A DNA stretch of 64,000 bases from Nanobdellota archaeon (lineage in GTDB: Archaea; Nanobdellota; Nanobdellia; Woesearchaeales; GW2011-AR4): contig JBBSWH010000005.1 of the NCBI GenBank assembly GCA_038046385.1, forward strand, positions 32,001 to 96,000. The letters run 5' to 3'. Below, in pieces: positions 10,158 to 58,844 of the stretch. Within the stretch, counting starts at the first letter, position 1, and each line of letters starts with the position of its first letter. Under the pieces are notes generated by a model. That model was given only the letters and a program-made list of their open reading frames with translations, ran no database searches and was not told the origin of the DNA. The translations under genes and the position numbers were made by a program.

Positions 10158-10225
10158 ATTAGAACAATGAAATAGGGAGATATTTATAAAGTTTATTGAA
10201 AATGTCATATAATATTGCAACGACT

Positions 10226-10448
10226 GCCGCACGCCACCACATCGGCGGCTGTCGTCGCTTTCGCTCCTCGTCGGACAGACCGTAGGGCGCGTCCCCAGTC
10301 CGACCAGCGCCGACGTGGCGTGCGGCGAGCCGAGGGATGCAAATTGAGCAAAGCTCAATTACACACTTGAAGCTTCGCTTCAAGTCGTGGCTCCTACGGA
10401 GTGGCGAGCAGGTTGCTAGGCAACCGTCGCACTGCCATTGTCGGCGCA
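10226..10448 (+). ncRNA. GC-rich structured element, copy A (candidate ncRNA or non-autonomous repeat)
   Basis: Shares several conserved blocks and covarying stems with 46577-46796; TTTATAAA about 30-40 nt upstream. Confidence 0.55.
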
Positions 10449-10489: not shown

Positions 10490-11326
10490 ATGATAATAAC
10501 TCATAATGAAGCAAGGCAGCTTTTGGGCGCAAAGAAAGCCGGATTAAAAACGCTTGATGTATCTCTTGACCTCGGCAAAACAAAAGCAAAAGTAACCATA
10601 GATGGGGATTATTTTGCCTTTCCGGATGGGCAGAAAGTTGATGAAGAGCAGCTGAAAAAAACGCTTAAGAAAGATGCGGTCTGCTTTATTGTAAAGGATA
10701 ATTCTGTTTTGAAGGCGCAGCTTTTCTCTGATGATACAAACAAGTTCTACAAGCTCGTGCCAACATCAGATGCACCCACAGTTGAAATATCCGGCATAAG
10801 GATGCATGTGACAAAAAGCATGACTCCAATGCAGGATACTGAGAAAAAGCTCGAGAGCATAATGCCTGTGAAAGGTTTTGTGCTTGATACGTGCATGGGA
10901 CTAGGATATACGGCGATAATGGCATCAAAAAGCGCTGAATTTGTTTTTACCTGTGAAAGAGATGCTAATATAATAGAGGTTGCGATGCACAACCCATGGT
11001 CAAAAGAGCTGTTTGATAACAAAAAAATAAGTATAATCAATACAAGCGTATTTGAACAAATTAAGTTGTTTAAGAGTGGTATGTTTGATATTGTAATCCA
11101 TGATCCTCCAAGGCTGACGCTTGCAACAGAACTTTACTCGCTTGATTTCTATAAAGAGGTTTTCAGAGTCTTAAAAGAAAAAGGAAAACTGTATCATTAC
11201 ACAGGCAATCCCGGCGGAAAAAACAGGAATATTGACCTTGCTGCAAATGTAATGCTAAGGTTAAGAAAAGCTGGTTTTAGTAATATTAAGAAAGCTCATT
11301 TTGGTGTTGTTGCGTCGAAAAAATAG
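10490..11326 (+). CDS. Predicted archaeal SAM-dependent methyltransferase
   Basis: EISGIRMH, VLDTCMGLGYTA, HDPPR motifs. Confidence 0.85.
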   Translation: MIITHNEARQLLGAKKAGLKTLDVSLDLGKTKAKVTIDGDYFAFPDGQKVDEEQLKKTLKKDAVCFIVKDNSVLKAQLFSDDTNKFYKLVPTSDAPTVEISGIRMHVTKSMTPMQDTEKKLESIMPVKGFVLDTCMGLGYTAIMASKSAEFVFTCERDANIIEVAMHNPWSKELFDNKKISIINTSVFEQIKLFKSGMFDIVIHDPPRLTLATELYSLDFYKEVFRVLKEKGKLYHYTGNPGGKNRNIDLAANVMLRLRKAGFSNIKKAHFGVVASKK

Positions 11327-32944: not shown

Positions 32945-33736
32945 ATGCATAAAATGGCACTCTTCATTGACGCACACACACATTTAGACCACCATCTTCT
33001 AGTTAGCCAGCTGGATGAAGTAATAAGAAGGGCGAAGAATGCTGGAGTTCGCCATATTGTAACCAATGGGATAAATCCGGAAACAAACAGGAAATGCCTT
33101 GAAATATCTAAAAAATACGATATTGTAGAGTGCGGGATGGGGCTGTACCCAAGAAATGCTTTAAAGAAAGATATTGACAGCGGAGATTACCCGATAAAGC
33201 TGTGGGATTATAATGTTGATGAAGAGCTTGATTTCATAAGGCAGAATAAAAACAGCATTGTTGCAATTAGCGAGGTTGGGTTGGATTTTGTTGACGGAGA
33301 AAGCAAGGAGCAGATGGAAGATTTTGAAAAAGTAATGAAGCTTGCTGAACAAATTGGAAAGCCGATTGTGGTGCATTCCAGAAAAGCAGAGCAGAAATGC
33401 ATTGAGATGATTGAATCTTCTAAGCTAAAAAAAGTGGTGATGCACTGCTTCTGCGGCAAGAAATCGCTTGTGAAAAGAATAGCGGACAACGGATGGTATA
33501 TCACGATTCCGACAAGCGTTGTCAGGGCGCAGCAATTTCAGGATATTGTAAAAAACGTGCCGATAACGCAGCTTTTCTGCGAAACTGATTCACCTTACTT
33601 AAGCCCTTACAAAGACAAAATGAACGAGCCTGCTTTCATACTGGAAAGCTACAATAAGATAAGCGAGATAAAGAAGATGGATGCTTTGGAAGTTGCCAAC
33701 AGCATCTATATGAACTGGCAGAAAGTGTTTAAATGA
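32945..33736 (+). CDS. tatD: TatD-family DNase
   Basis: DAHTHLD, EVGLDF, VHSR, MHCF, ETDSPYL. Confidence 0.93.
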   Translation: MHKMALFIDAHTHLDHHLLVSQLDEVIRRAKNAGVRHIVTNGINPETNRKCLEISKKYDIVECGMGLYPRNALKKDIDSGDYPIKLWDYNVDEELDFIRQNKNSIVAISEVGLDFVDGESKEQMEDFEKVMKLAEQIGKPIVVHSRKAEQKCIEMIESSKLKKVVMHCFCGKKSLVKRIADNGWYITIPTSVVRAQQFQDIVKNVPITQLFCETDSPYLSPYKDKMNEPAFILESYNKISEIKKMDALEVANSIYMNWQKVFK

Positions 33737-33784
33737 GTTAGCAGCTTCAAAATTCTTGATTTGTTGGTTTAAGTATCGTTCATG

Positions 33785-33804
33785 CTCCGTAGGAGCCGTC
33801 CCTC
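33785..33804 (-). repeat. 20-nt fragment of the GC-rich structured element
   Basis: Reverse complement GAGGGACGGCTCCTACGGAG is identical to 46722-46741. Confidence 0.7.
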
Positions 33805-33903
33805 TGAACTCAGTTTATAGTTTTCCAGAATGAATTTTGACCTTAGGCTGCTAACCATAGTAAAACCGCAAGATTTTTAAGCTACAACTATCCAGTCAGA
33901 ACC

Positions 33904-35989: not shown

Positions 35990-36065
35990 TTTTTGTCACC
36001 TCTGAGTTTTTACGAAGAGGTTTGTTGAGCTTTGCTCAACTTCACCTTTTTTGTTTTTTATTGGG

Positions 36066-36233
36066 CGCCGCGGCTGGGATTCCACGCAAATCGAAGATTT
36101 GCTGGGGTGCTCGAAAATCTATGATTTTCGACATTCACCCAGAAGGATTAATCCTTTCCAAGATTTGAACCCAGAAGCTCTTTCGAGCAGGAAGGTCTTA
36201 GTTTCCCGGAATACCGAGTTATCCTACCGCGGC
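36066..36233 (-). tRNA. Ser-type (long variable arm) tRNA-like gene with 84-nt T-loop insertion and atypical anticodon loop (AAG by position); possibly a pseudogene
   Basis: GCCGCGG/CCGCGGC acceptor stem, G73, variable arm GCTC-GAAA-GAGC, T stem CTGGG/CCCAG; insert 36080-36163 at position 59/60. Confidence 0.65.
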
Positions 36234-36269
36234 ATAAAGTTTAAATATCAGTAAACTAATCTTCTCTAT

Positions 36270-44467: not shown

Positions 44468-46519
44468 CTAGTATGCTGTTCTTTTTCTAAACATAAACAA
44501 CAAAAGAAGAACAAATACTGCAATCCCTATTGATATAGCCGGCAAAATCCACCTATCATCCGAATCAACATTCATGAACAAAAGGATTCTTTGAAGAATG
44601 CTCGCGTTCCACAAGCCAATTGATAATTCTTTTGTCGCTTCATATTTTTTGCCTGTGTCATCTGTGTACAGAATTTGAACATTAAAATCATTCTTTCCGT
44701 ATTTCAATTCTTTTCCGATTGAATTCAAATTAAATTTGCGGTCATTCTCAAGCCTTGCAAGATCCCACTGCGTTTCTATTCCGTTTCTTGTTACTTTCAG
44801 CACAGCGCTTTTCGGCAATGAAGAGGATTTTCTTGCAGCAGTAAAAATTATTGTGAAGTTTTCATTGTATGAAACATTCTGCGGATACTGCAGGTTTTCT
44901 ATTTCTATCTTAGGAATGTCTTTTATTGTAAAGTTGACAAAGGATGACTTTGAGACGATGCTGCTTTTCAAAATGACAGGAATTTCTTTGTAGCCTGTCT
45001 TGCTTTTTTCTATGCCAAAAGAGAAATTTGCCGACTGGGAGATTCCAAGATCAAGGCTTTCGCATTTGTTTTCAAAGCAGACGCTTGCGCCGCTTAAGAA
45101 AACATTCCCGTTGTTTTTTGCACTGCACAGTATTTTTGCATTCTGATACTGGTAAAACTCATTTTTTGTGGCTGCGCATTCCAGTTCAACATTTGCAGAA
45201 TATTTTTTTTCCTTTTCGTCTTCGAATAAATTTGCAAGCTGCTGCATCTCTTCAATATCAAAATAATCTTCTCTCACGCTGGCGACAAAACTTGATTCAT
45301 CTGAAATGTTTTCAAGAGTCCTGACTGCAACCGGAAAAGTATAGGAATATTTTTTATCGAGAGCGCTGCTTACCTGCACTATCCAGAAAACCTTTCTTTT
45401 TTCGAACGGCAAAAGAAGGATGCTTTTTGCCCCATCTCCCATTATTTTGACTTCTTTTGGCTCATTTACGTAAACTTCGGTTGCATAGTAAAAACTGTTT
45501 GTATTTTCTATGTCTGCTTCTATGAGGTTGTAAGAGCCGAGTGCAACTGCTTTTTTGAGTATAGTTATGCTGACTTTTAATGGAATGGTATATGTGCCGG
45601 AATGGCTGACAAGGCTTGTTTTAATTTCCATGTCTTTCGCTTTTAAGTCTGCATTCTTTCCGAGCCACTGATAATATGTTGACGGATCATCAGAATCAAC
45701 AGACTCTTTGAATTTCAGATGTGTTGGGTCTACCCATCCAAACTCGCCGTATGTGACATCAAAAGGAACCCACCCATAGCCAGGAAAATAAACCTCTGCC
45801 CAGCCGTGCGCCCCCCAGCTGTCTGCAAACAATTCTGAATTTGTGTAGGCAATGCCGGATATGAATCTTGCAGGTATTCCAACAGACCTTGCCATTGCAA
45901 TGAACAGAGAAGTCAACTCATCACAAACACCCTGCTTGTTTTCCAGCACCCAAGACGCTTTTTGGCTTATATCTGCTGTGAGCGTGCTTAGGTTATAGTT
46001 TATGTTGTTTTTTGTCCAGCCAGCCAGCTTGAAAACGGCGCTGTACAAATCGTCTTCGCCTTCAACAAGCTGCGATGCCAGCCTGATTATTTCAGGGTCG
46101 TCTGAGTCTATTGTCGGGCTCGGCTTTGTGTAAGGAAGGATATCATCAGGAAGCTTTTGTATTGGGAACGGTATTTTTTCTTTTATCTGGACTATGCTGT
46201 TTGTGGTCTTTACCTGCGCATTAAGATTAAAGCTTATTTTGTCTTCTGGGCTTTTCCATTGAAACTGCAAAACATCATTGTTTTGCTCTGCTTTTGGATT
46301 TGTTTCAAATTTAAGCAATTCCTGATTCTTGTATTCCTTTGGATAGAATGTCAGGTTTATGGTTGCGCTTTCAACATAACCACTAGGAGTTAATTTGACA
46401 ATCTCTATCTGAGAAGCCATTTTGACATCTGCTGTCACAGTCTGGCTGCTGTAGTACCACTGCGCATAGGCTGAAGGAATCAATAATAAAATCATCAAGA
46501 ATACAAGCTCTTTTTTCAT
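44468..46519 (-). CDS. Secreted, membrane-anchored transglutaminase-like protein
   Basis: GVCDEL...ARSVGIPARFISG...HGWAEVY...FDVT. Confidence 0.88.
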   Translation of the reverse strand: MKKELVFLMILLLIPSAYAQWYYSSQTVTADVKMASQIEIVKLTPSGYVESATINLTFYPKEYKNQELLKFETNPKAEQNNDVLQFQWKSPEDKISFNLNAQVKTTNSIVQIKEKIPFPIQKLPDDILPYTKPSPTIDSDDPEIIRLASQLVEGEDDLYSAVFKLAGWTKNNINYNLSTLTADISQKASWVLENKQGVCDELTSLFIAMARSVGIPARFISGIAYTNSELFADSWGAHGWAEVYFPGYGWVPFDVTYGEFGWVDPTHLKFKESVDSDDPSTYYQWLGKNADLKAKDMEIKTSLVSHSGTYTIPLKVSITILKKAVALGSYNLIEADIENTNSFYYATEVYVNEPKEVKIMGDGAKSILLLPFEKRKVFWIVQVSSALDKKYSYTFPVAVRTLENISDESSFVASVREDYFDIEEMQQLANLFEDEKEKKYSANVELECAATKNEFYQYQNAKILCSAKNNGNVFLSGASVCFENKCESLDLGISQSANFSFGIEKSKTGYKEIPVILKSSIVSKSSFVNFTIKDIPKIEIENLQYPQNVSYNENFTIIFTAARKSSSLPKSAVLKVTRNGIETQWDLARLENDRKFNLNSIGKELKYGKNDFNVQILYTDDTGKKYEATKELSIGLWNASILQRILLFMNVDSDDRWILPAISIGIAVFVLLLLFMFRKRTAY

Positions 46520-46576
46520 TTATTGGATTATGATATTTTTGTTTATAAGGTTTGCCATAAATTTAGATTATTTCAA

Positions 46577-46796
46577 ACGCCACTATCGGCGGCTGTCGTC
46601 ACTACGTGACTCGCTTGACACAACTTGAGCAAAGCTCAAGTGTGCAATTGGTAGTAACCAATTTGCACCCCGAATGGGGCGTCCCCCGTCAAGCCAGCGC
46701 CGACGTGGCGTGCGACGAGCCGAGGGACGGCTCCTACGGAGTGGCGAGTAGGATTTTTCACAGGGAAAAATCCGTAGCACCGCCACTGTCGGCGCA
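46577..46796 (+). ncRNA. GC-rich structured element, copy B
   Basis: Homologous to 10231-10448; TTTATAA at 46542-46548, about 30 nt upstream. Confidence 0.55.
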
Positions 46797-46857
46797 AAGA
46801 GAACCTAACATTAATCCAAATAACATTTATAAATGGACTAGATGTACTTACCAGTAT

Positions 46858-46994
46858 GCCGAGGTCGCATAGCCTGGTATTGCGGTGATTTCTGAAAAGA
46901 AACCGTATGATTGCTAGGCTTACGCTTTTTGGAGTAAGTGTTATAAAAATCCACTGTCCGAAAGGATCCGGGGGTTCAAATCCTCCCCTCGGCG
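46858..46994 (+). tRNA. tRNA-Ser(GCT) with two introns (46888-46908 at 29/30; 46917-46948 at 37/38)
   Basis: Removing both gives anticodon arm GTGGA-TTGCTAA-TCCAC; acceptor GCCGAGG/CCTCGGC, G73, long variable arm, TTCAAAT; intron 1 has a BHB (GCGG/CCGT, bulges TGA and ATG). Confidence 0.88.
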
Positions 46995-47008
46995 TTTATT
47001 TTAATAAA

Positions 47009-57980: not shown

Positions 57981-58691
57981 ATGATACAGAAAACGAAAGA
58001 AGAGTATTTGAAAGAACATAAGAATTGGGGCAGTATTAAACTTATCAATTTTCCCGAAAAGAATGAAAGATTGGCAGAGCTTGTCGGCATAATTCTTGGT
58101 GATGGTAACCTACATGTTTATACAAAAGGTAGTAATGTGGGAACTTATTCTTTAAGAATAGCTGGAAATTACATAAAAGATCATGAATATCTTACAAATT
58201 ATGTGGCTAGTTTGTGCAAAGACTTGTTTATGGTTAAGCCTAGGACATACAAACAGCCAAATGTAAATTGCATTTATCTTATAATTGATGGTAGGCTAAT
58301 TATAGATTTTTTAATTGAGATTGGATTAAAAAGCGGCAACAAAATAAAAAGTCAAGTTACAATACCCGATTGGATTATGGAAAATAATGAATATCTTAAA
58401 TCATGCATAAGGGGATTGATAGATACCGATGGCTGCGTTTATGAAATGCTGCCTCATTGGCCAGGCTTGTTCCAGATTAATTTTGAGAACAGAAACATAA
58501 CTTTGTTGAGAGATACAAGAGAGGCTTTGATAAAGCTAGGCTATCACCCTTCTAAAATTTGTGGCAATAGAACGCAATTCGGAACTAAAATTTATATCTC
58601 TCGAAAGGAAGAAATCAAAAGATTTTATAAAGAGATTGGGTCTAGCAACGATAGGAATATAAAACAATTCACTAAAGTGTTTAACTCATAG
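57981..58691 (+). CDS. Free-standing double-motif LAGLIDADG endonuclease
   Basis: LAELVGIILGDG and CIRGLIDTDG motifs; SD GGAGG before ATG 57981. Confidence 0.88.
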   Translation: MIQKTKEEYLKEHKNWGSIKLINFPEKNERLAELVGIILGDGNLHVYTKGSNVGTYSLRIAGNYIKDHEYLTNYVASLCKDLFMVKPRTYKQPNVNCIYLIIDGRLIIDFLIEIGLKSGNKIKSQVTIPDWIMENNEYLKSCIRGLIDTDGCVYEMLPHWPGLFQINFENRNITLLRDTREALIKLGYHPSKICGNRTQFGTKIYISRKEEIKRFYKEIGSSNDRNIKQFTKVFNS

Positions 58692-58780
58692 CCCCGTAGT
58701 CTAGCGGTCACTTGAATAAAGCTGCAGAAGGATTCGGCCCTTTGGAGGCTGAGGCGGCAGTTCGAATCTGCCCGGGGCTA
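58690..58780 (+). tRNA. tRNA-Gln(TTG) with 18-nt D-loop intron (58710-58727)
   Basis: AGCCCCG/CGGGGCT acceptor, CGGCC-CTTTGGA-GGCTG anticodon arm, GGCAG-TTCGAAT-CTGCC; BHB-like GCGG/CTGC with bulges TCA and AGA. Confidence 0.88.
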
Positions 58781-58844
58781 TATTTTAATTTTCTCTTGAT
58801 TATGGGCAATACTTAGATATACCTTACCAATATTTCTCTAAACT

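Follow-up and report, generated by a model that had tools for sequence, protein, structure and literature searches.

Strand-specific, Y-shaped repeats in head-to-head pairs dispersed among genomes of Woesearchaeales-type DPANN archaea

The element of about 220 nt present twice (copies A and B) in the analyzed window, a stretch of 64,000 nt from the genome of a Nanobdellota archaeon (contig JBBSWH010000005.1, positions 32,001 to 96,000), is formed by two units, each about 100 nt long, that overlap and lie on opposite strands, head to head. With high confidence, these units represent a dispersed, strand-specific and branched repeat that occurs in head-to-head pairs. Among the readings put forward in the original prediction, that of a non-autonomous single-strand mobile element is the one favored by the evidence (strand specificity, copy number, patchy spread and lack of synteny), and we give somewhat better than an even chance to the proposal that the repeat spreads as single-stranded DNA (ssDNA) via a trans-acting enzyme and is not a family of RNA genes. 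The parts of both copies are given below, together with their matches to R1, a covariance model built from 3' halves of the element only (M1 and M2 are subtypes of the unit, and P0 is its outer helix).

10183-10189: TTTATAA box, 37 nt before copy A; the minus-strand divergent gene has its ATG (10157) at a distance of 26-32 nt
10226-10448: copy A, intergenic element
10226-10326, minus strand: unit a2 of copy A, diverged M2 type; R1 match at 10244-10313, 29.1 bits, E 0.009 genome-wide
10306-10447, plus strand: unit a1 of copy A, M1 type; R1 match at 10315-10436, 53.2 bits
10306-10313 with 10440-10447: outer helix P0 of a1, GCGCCGAC with GTCGGCGC, complementarity score 8
10340-10389, plus strand: AT-rich insert of copy A, 50 nt with two hairpins, a gap with respect to copy B in the alignment
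44468-46519, minus strand: open reading frame of the divergent gene beside copy B
46542-46548: TTTATAA box, 29 nt before copy B; the minus-strand divergent gene has its ATG (46519) at a distance of 23-29 nt
46577-46796: copy B, intergenic element
46577-46711, minus strand: unit b2 of copy B, diverged M2 type; R1 match at 46588-46703, 26.2 bits, E 0.04 genome-wide, and fold
about 46620-46668, in b2: AT-rich insert of copy B, about 50 nt with two hairpins, a gap with respect to copy A
46697-46795, plus strand: unit b1 of copy B, M1 type; R1 match at 46705-46784, 86.5 bits, and fold
46697-46704 with 46788-46795: outer helix P0 of b1, GCGCCGAC with GTCGGCGC, score 8

The two copies were confirmed as homologous elements at the sites originally proposed, with a mean column identity of 73% in a MAFFT alignment in which every sequence block quoted in the prediction was present, and with an E value of about 3e-13 in a within-genome BLAST comparison. 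Both were intergenic, as had been claimed, the overlapping open reading frames being short and without support. The compensatory changes reported between them could be read directly (GTCGGAC/GTCCGAC in A vs. GCTTGAC/GTCAAGC in B, and GGTTGC/GCAACC in A vs. GGATTTTTC/GAAAAATCC in B) and were located in helices that covary across many genomes, while the predicted exchange of G-C for G.U pairs was recovered as TGCC in A vs. CGCC in B, within helix P1. When copy A was folded as RNA, z values of -4.5 (plus strand) and -5.1 (minus strand) were obtained, and copy B folded as DNA gave -9.2 and -8.6, respectively; in each of these four runs, 0 of 200 dinucleotide shuffles folded as well. The TTTATAA boxes described upstream of the copies were present before both A and B, but they were better placed for the divergent neighbor genes: at 23-32 nt from those ATGs, they fit these genes at least as well. 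With regard to known RNAs, the stated lack of hallmarks was upheld by the absence of Rfam (release 15) matches at gathering thresholds in the whole window, on which basis a known Rfam family or ribozyme was discarded. The best local matches around A and B (searched up to E of 10) had E values of 0.66 to 9 and corresponded to unrelated families. RNase P and SRP RNAs were also discarded as candidates, since both were located elsewhere in the genome (C5:111301-111613 and C6:7359-7649).

In BLAST comparisons and an initial inspection of relatives, pieces of the element were found separately, and its 3' half was present alone in many genomes. The structure of this unit was derived from a hand-made alignment of 15 copies, and consisted of a Y-shaped hairpin of about 100 nt in which an outer helix (P0), an internal loop and a helix P1 are followed by a three-way junction with helices P2 and P3. 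In P1, GGCG/CGCC was extended by 5-6 bp, and a single C was bulged out of its 3' strand. P2 had 6 bp beside the junction, often with tandem G.A/A.G pairs that were freely swapped for Watson-Crick pairs, and was capped by an asymmetric G-rich loop (GGGGWYG) plus a CCC-loop-GGG hairpin. P3 was a variable hairpin, and the junction nucleotides were two (YA) from P2 to P3 and one (G) from P3 to P1. The sequence of P0 differed from copy to copy, and a complementarity score of at least 8 was found in 51 of 86 units when each was paired with its own partner arm, vs. 179 of 1698 pairings with the arm of another unit.

Covariation was evaluated both on the hand-made alignment and on 68 copies from 53 sources gathered with R1. 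In the former, double-sided changes were detected in 11 of 25 pairs, with 88% of cells paired; in the latter, they were detected in 18 of 25 pairs with 91.5% of cells paired, and in neither case did any of 500 shuffles score as high. Slid controls on the 68 copies resulted in 34-47% of paired cells. The 68-copy alignment was fitted to R1, a procedure that favors the structure, and the hand-made 15-sequence alignment agrees with it. The expectation of a new structured family with real covariation was thus borne out by the double changes found in 18 of 25 pairs on 68 copies.

The idea that the plus strand encodes one pseudoknotted RNA or ribozyme spanning about 220 nt had to be abandoned, given that the 5' half is a reverse-complement relative of the 3' half. 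R1, built from 3' halves, also matched the 5' halves on the opposite strand, so that the element contains one unit twice, in inverted orientation, with homologous halves on opposite strands, each selected on its own strand. The 5'-half matches were weak in A and B (29.1 and 26.2 bits); in elements from relatives, the two halves scored 83.9 and 66.0 (L010), 86.2 and 64.5 (L011), 73.5 and 65.1 (L014), and 79.1 and 56.8 bits (L022). In tight pairs, each P0 was made from the complement of the 5' arm of the partner's P1, with an overlap of about 20 nt, which accounts for the fact that the 5' and 3' arms of the element both match its center. Likewise, the apparent pseudoknot of CGTCCCC with GGGGAYG is a product of the inverted duplication. 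In copy A, folds showed an outer helix of 12 bp for a2 (10226-10237 with 10315-10326), which overlaps a1 by 21 nt, and P0 of a1 enclosing P1, P2 with its G-rich loop, and P3; in copy B, b2 and b1 overlap at 46697-46711.

Two subtypes were distinguished by their P1 helix (GGCGTGCGRC/GTCGCACCGCC in M1 and GGCGCTGAC/GTCAGCCGCC in M2). At 20 loci of a high-copy genome (G144), all 10 pairs consisted of a minus-strand unit followed by a plus-strand unit, each joining one M2 to one M1. Partners were separated by 1 to 158 nt (40 and about 128 nt being among the values), and the longer gaps contained AT-rich hairpin cassettes. The same minus-then-plus arrangement was found in six other genomes (G032, G100, G101, G108, G135 and G151).

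The inserts of copies A and B occupied different positions in the element. That of copy A was located in the G-rich loop of a1 and contained the hairpins TTGAGC-AAA-GCTCAA and CTTGAAGC-TTC-GCTTCAAG; a motif with an insert of this type was also found at C5:23314, C17:19533 and C1:80895. A hairpin pair related to the insert of copy B was present at C11:106082 and C2:42556. Canonical bulge-helix-bulge introns, in which a 4-bp helix separates two 3-nt bulges at the insert boundaries, seem an unlikely explanation for these 50-nt inserts: no canonical motif was seen by eye, and the motif with its insert recurred at three other loci of the genome. For the insert of copy A, the best candidate by eye (GAGCC/GGCUC plus GAGG/CUUC) leaves a non-canonical bulge of 7-8 nt.

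The distribution of mismatches in the helices indicated which strand is folded. In the 68 copies, read in sense orientation, 1459 cells were Watson-Crick pairs, 51 were G.U and 8 were A.C. By subtype, the 45 M1 copies contained 38 G.U, 8 A.C, 97 G.A/A.G and 0 C.U/U.C mismatches, and the 23 M2 copies contained 13, 0, 28 and 0, respectively, adding up to 125 G.A/A.G vs. 0 C.U/U.C. As the orientation of the hits is set by the asymmetric architecture of the unit, this asymmetry is not a by-product of strand choice, and it indicates that each unit is selected to fold single-stranded on its own strand, paired units using opposite strands. Neither a duplex protein site nor a symmetric cruciform predicts such strand asymmetry. 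Tolerance of G.U and G.A pairs fits RNA and ssDNA alike.

In order to describe the spread of the family, R1 units were tallied among sampled genomes of the same order, and were present in 39 of 151 (38 of 144 genera), a count that takes in one unpublished genome (G156) and becomes 38 of 150 without it, the other claims being independent of that genome. Among the order genomes at least 90% complete, 26 of 115 were positive. Copy numbers in five genomes reached 34, 30, 17, 11 and 9, with 150 candidates scored per genome. In a draw at phylum level, 16 of 151 genomes were positive and all 16 were labeled as the same order (115 negatives came without a given label). A loose DNA pattern scan of named genomes returned at least 120 stretches, of which 80 loci were scored with R1; true units (E up to 1e-5) were found in nine of them, and most of the other pattern matches were GC-rich bacterial records. 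The nine true loci comprised four Candidatus Woesearchaeota records, two from one Nanoarchaeota metagenome-assembled genome (MAG) and three labeled as uncultured Methanosarcinales. A virus-borne element was discarded, as none of the four IMG/VR pattern matches was a true unit.

The units behaved as repeats within genomes. Of 63 copies, 38 had their nearest neighbor in their own genome (when labels were shuffled, the mean was 12.5 and the maximum 24), and in one genome (G172) near-identical units were found in unrelated flanks. At the locus of copy A, the unit was absent from all 14 orthologous loci of the genus, defined by orthologues of the downstream gene (62-68% identity). No conserved flank was detected among G144 units, no target-site duplication at three near-identical G172 units, and no filled/empty locus pair with alignable flanks was obtained.

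A mobilizing enzyme was searched for among known candidates. A single IS200-like Y1 gene was present in the genome of the window, at C10:41823-42302; its product of 159 aa showed HUH-like and Tyr motifs on visual inspection, and the flanks of the gene did not recur elsewhere. Within the order, Y1 was found in 56 of 151 genomes and coincided with the element in 20, so that it was mildly enriched in element-bearing genomes (20 of 39 vs. 36 of 112 others), 19 of the 39 being without a Y1 match. No unit was located within about 1.5 kb of a Y1 transposase at any of 13 loci, and neither Y1 nor TnpB was detected over the cut-off in the five high-copy genomes (0 of 5 in both cases). A RAYT-driven REPIN was rejected on these grounds (no unit at 13 Y1 loci, no Y1 over the cut-off in the five high-copy genomes, and unrepeated Y1 flanks). 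The genome of the window likewise lacked a TnpB match over the cut-off, which, together with its absence from the five high-copy genomes, led to the rejection of a TnpB guide RNA. A retroelement was dismissed on the basis that no reverse transcriptase (RVT_1) match was found in the same genome, which is 85% complete. Two wide pairs of G028, with units in plus-then-minus arrangement, enclosed ordinary genes and yielded no cargo gene; considering also that identical contig ends span only 141 nt, units were not regarded as the ends of a larger transposon.

No description of the unit family was found in a full-text literature search, in which papers were represented mainly by their abstracts, and within that scope the family appears to be undescribed. 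To our knowledge, no REP-like or REPIN-like repeat systems have been described in archaea. The family is nearest to REP/BIME/REPIN repeats in function and architecture. Like them (PMC3733652), it is extragenic, multi-copy, patchy between relatives and made of strand-oriented hairpin units, which form head-to-head heterodimers (here M1 with M2) with optional linker cassettes between partners. According to that paper (Di Nocera et al. 2013, PMC3733652), head-to-head dimers predominate in bacterial REPs, with a preference for heterodimers, and the CGTC REP superfamily, where head-to-head dimers also predominate, has no dedicated transposase gene found. The present units share these dimers and the lack of a detected dedicated transposase with CGTC-tagged REPs, whereas the latter are bacterial and have stems of 8-9 bp and loops of 4-5 nt (PMC3733652). 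The CGTC at the P3/P1 junction of the units is a chance presence, and no other sequence likeness to CGTC-tagged REPs was seen.

The family is nevertheless outside REP proper because of its size, its departure from the simple-hairpin shape and its lack of RAYT association. In contrast to the simple hairpins of 20-40 bp of REP/BIME/REPIN, its units are about 100 nt long and contain a three-way junction supported by covariation; moreover, it is hosted by a DPANN archaeon, a tag of the GTAG type was not recognized, no RAYT gene was flanked by units (0 of 13 Y1 loci), and the five high-copy genomes were without Y1. In its elaborateness, the fold of the unit equals those of many RNAs, and a covarying three-way junction with conserved unpaired G runs, more elaborate than known REPs, is expected of a functional RNA. 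The family also differs from IS200/IS605-derived elements, where left- and right-end hairpins lie on the same strand, in that paired units lie on opposite strands and a TnpB match is absent. Correia, ERIC and BOX elements are bacterial miniature inverted-repeat elements (MITEs) that fold as RNA; they are small, non-autonomous, modular and located near genes, their ends are inverted repeats, they are accompanied by target-site duplications, and their origin lies in known insertion sequences. The units are similarly small, non-autonomous and modular, but showed no duplication (three G172 units), no parent element at the few loci examined, and no cargo. Finally, the T- or Y-shaped hairpins at the ends of parvovirus genomes, and the single-strand initiation signals known from plasmids and phages, are found beside replication genes, in one or two copies per replicon. 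An analogy may be drawn with these strand-specific branched hairpins of about 100-145 nt, which work only as folded ssDNA; the relation is by analogy only, as up to 34 copies of the present units are dispersed in a chromosome.

Under the favored reading of a non-autonomous mobile element, the 220-nt element is a head-to-head heterodimer from a dispersed, multi-copy repeat family of Woesearchaeales-type DPANN archaea, which would multiply within genomes in the manner of REP/BIME/REPIN repeats, at intergenic sites, in either orientation and with optional linker cassettes. An enzyme acting in trans would recognize and copy each unit in its folded single-stranded form, most likely as ssDNA, and any effect on neighbor genes through read-through RNA would be secondary.

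Several RNA-based explanations have to be weighed against this proposal. We consider it unlikely that each unit encodes a stable, structured RNA of about 100 nt that acts in trans (e.g. as part of a ribonucleoprotein), with dimers representing divergent overlapping genes. Such genes could be multi-copy, as are those of archaeal C/D-box sRNAs, and the strong covariation of the three-way junction, the conserved unpaired nucleotides, the G.U and G.A bias of the sense strand and the closure of the 5' and 3' ends by P0 all agree with this possibility. As regards transcription signals, some solitary units had a TATA-like box 25-45 nt upstream, and runs of at least five T were slightly in excess downstream (12 of 55 vs. 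4 of 55 in the control), yet TATA-like boxes showed no positional peak on the sense side with respect to the control side (54 and 53 flanks of solitary units), so that an own promoter or terminator was discarded for solitary units. The motif scan was crude and the scanned copies were not independent. In abutting dimers, the promoter would moreover fall inside a GC-rich partner starting 1 nt away. Since no unit was detected in 112 of the 151 order genomes and the copy number ranged up to 34, they are not a core RNA, and they are without synteny. The predicted terminal loops of P3 also speak against an RNA gene: GNRA tetraloops were nearly absent (1 of 67), and 36 of 67 were triloops, most often C(GAA)G (10 cases). 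A GNA triloop with a C-G closing pair is a hallmark of very stable DNA mini-hairpins, and loops rich in triloops and poor in GNRA are more typical of such hairpins than of functional RNAs.

Rather less probable still is that the units are cis-acting RNA structures of untranslated regions (3'-end protectors, terminators, insulators or leaders), i.e. domesticated repeats. Bacterial REP/BIME sequences have been described in such roles, the structure is very stable, and all inspected copies were intergenic, including several (L234, L237 and copy B) with the end of a gene on one side and a tRNA promoter on the other, and one (L225) in the apparent 5' leader of a thermosome gene. Against it, the orientation of units with respect to neighboring genes was mixed, A, B and the unit at C2:34170 have divergent genes on their two sides, so that read-through would not be expected to reach them, and the unit at C1:147646 is antisense to both neighbors; it is also hard to see how one transcript could account for a sense fold selected on each strand of a dimer. 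A self-cleaving or otherwise catalytic RNA borne by a repetitive element seems very improbable. Hammerhead, twister and HDV-like ribozymes are often found on such elements, the units are multi-copy and patchy, and their compact junction and conserved unpaired G-rich loop would suit a ribozyme, which would belong to a new class, as known families were unmatched. The G-rich loop was, however, shortened or absent in many well-scoring G144 copies, which indicates that there is no invariant core, the tandem G.A pairs of P2 were freely swapped for Watson-Crick pairs, transcription signals were not seen, and the genome of the window had no reverse transcriptase match. Equally little weight is given to double-stranded palindromes that serve a dimeric protein, or cruciform sites, without any single-strand function: the nested palindromic architecture and the GC-rich arms of GGCG/CGCC words would fit them, but departures of the G.T and A.C types, and of the G.A and C.T types, should then be equal (51 vs. 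8 and 125 vs. 0 were observed), and the helix sequences vary freely with pairing kept.

DPANN genomes are very small and dense, and yet this elaborate fold is present 20-34 times in some of them. With 18 of 25 pairs changed on both sides, the family provides an unusually clean covariation signal, and its G.U/G.A asymmetry constitutes a built-in strand test, by which selection as ssDNA or RNA and the enzyme that recognizes the unit become testable. It is conceivable, though we regard it as rather doubtful, that the family represents a new archaeal replicator, with a Y-shaped hairpin and an enzyme outside IS200/RAYT, TnpB and reverse transcriptases, or else a new class of structured or catalytic RNA spread as a repeat; if either were true, an entire DPANN order would possess a nucleic-acid machine that has so far escaped description and has a recognition fold of its own.

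The repeat also left a mark on the assemblies. Contigs of G144 and G108 ended in it, with identity over 140-144 nt, which is about the k-mer length given in several MAG contig titles (k141); the identical ends correspond to the repeat itself and not to a longer element. Units break MAG assemblies at the k-mer length, and could serve to mark Woesearchaeales contigs, including those binned with putative hosts.

Besides the paired units of copies A and B, the window's own genome (G000) carried three solitary units of the diverged form of the M2 subtype found in both copies, each scoring about 33 bits with the unit covariance model R1:
C1:147646-147709, solitary unit, diverged M2 type
C6:125859-125922, solitary unit, diverged M2 type
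C6:143101-143164, solitary unit, diverged M2 type
Their P0 helices were AT-rich (e.g., CCAACAATAATATA/CATATTGTTGG), and P3 was a mini-hairpin of the GCGAAGC type. A single IS200-like Y1 transposase ORF was present in this genome:
C10:41823-42302 (L209 1423-1902), IS200-like Y1 transposase ORF, 159 aa
GC-rich hairpins flanked this ORF, with no second occurrence of them elsewhere in the genome.

Units were also found in other genomes. In G172, one of them lay upstream of a gene:
L225, G172:C1:279389-279465, unit between a TATA-like box and a gene start
The N-terminus of the following gene (MSQQIQPIFILPEGSQRT) resembled, by eye, that of a thermosome subunit, and the position of the unit between box and start therefore suggests that it may occupy the leader of a putative thermosome gene. 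At four other loci of G172 (L224, L226, L227 and L231), a second structured domain, conserved among them and some 170 nt long, lay ahead of the unit; its closing helix was AAATCCAGCCATGG/CCATGGCTGGATTT, and domain and unit together made up a composite repeat of roughly 280 nt. True units (75-88 bits) were likewise detected at L049, L064 and L075, in records labelled as uncultured Methanosarcinales archaeon whose contigs had a GC content of 38-49%; these labels could reflect either DPANN DNA mis-binned with a possible host, or transfer.

A further structured element was observed within the window:
33730-33860, minus strand, structure closed by GGTTAGCAGC/GCTGCTAACC
Its tip (33785-33804) was the same G-rich motif as that of the units, GAGGGACGGCTCCTACGGAG. 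Relatives closed by GTTAGCATC/GATGCTAAC were located at C5:23240-23455 and C17:19460-19675, both with the AT-rich two-hairpin insert, and together these elements may represent a second structured family with modules in common.

No tRNA was predicted in the whole window by default ARAGORN or by Rfam; the following were called by ARAGORN only with the intron option:
46857-46995, plus strand, tRNA gene
58689-58781, plus strand, tRNA-Cys (GCA) with an 11-nt intron
The first lay some 60 nt past copy B on its downstream side and was assigned to Gln-CTG with a 43-nt intron, an identity that is doubtful because of the long variable arm. With the same option, introns were predicted in 20 of the 24 tRNAs that ARAGORN detected in the genome. 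Another candidate, called by none of the tools used, was recognized by eye:
about 36040-36235, minus strand, tRNA-like gene
Its ends were GCCGCGG...CCGCGGCGCC, and its T-loop appeared to be split by some 80 nt of inserted hairpins; these hairpins (CGAAAATCAT.GATTTTCG, GCAAATCTTCGATTTGC) recurred at C2:42450-42620; a TTGAGCAAAGCTCAA hairpin followed the gene (36025-36042). In many genomes of the genus, a minus-strand tRNA gene was also observed upstream of orthologues of the gene at window position 10490 (L192, L193, L198 and L200-L204), with inserts varying widely in length and hairpin content.
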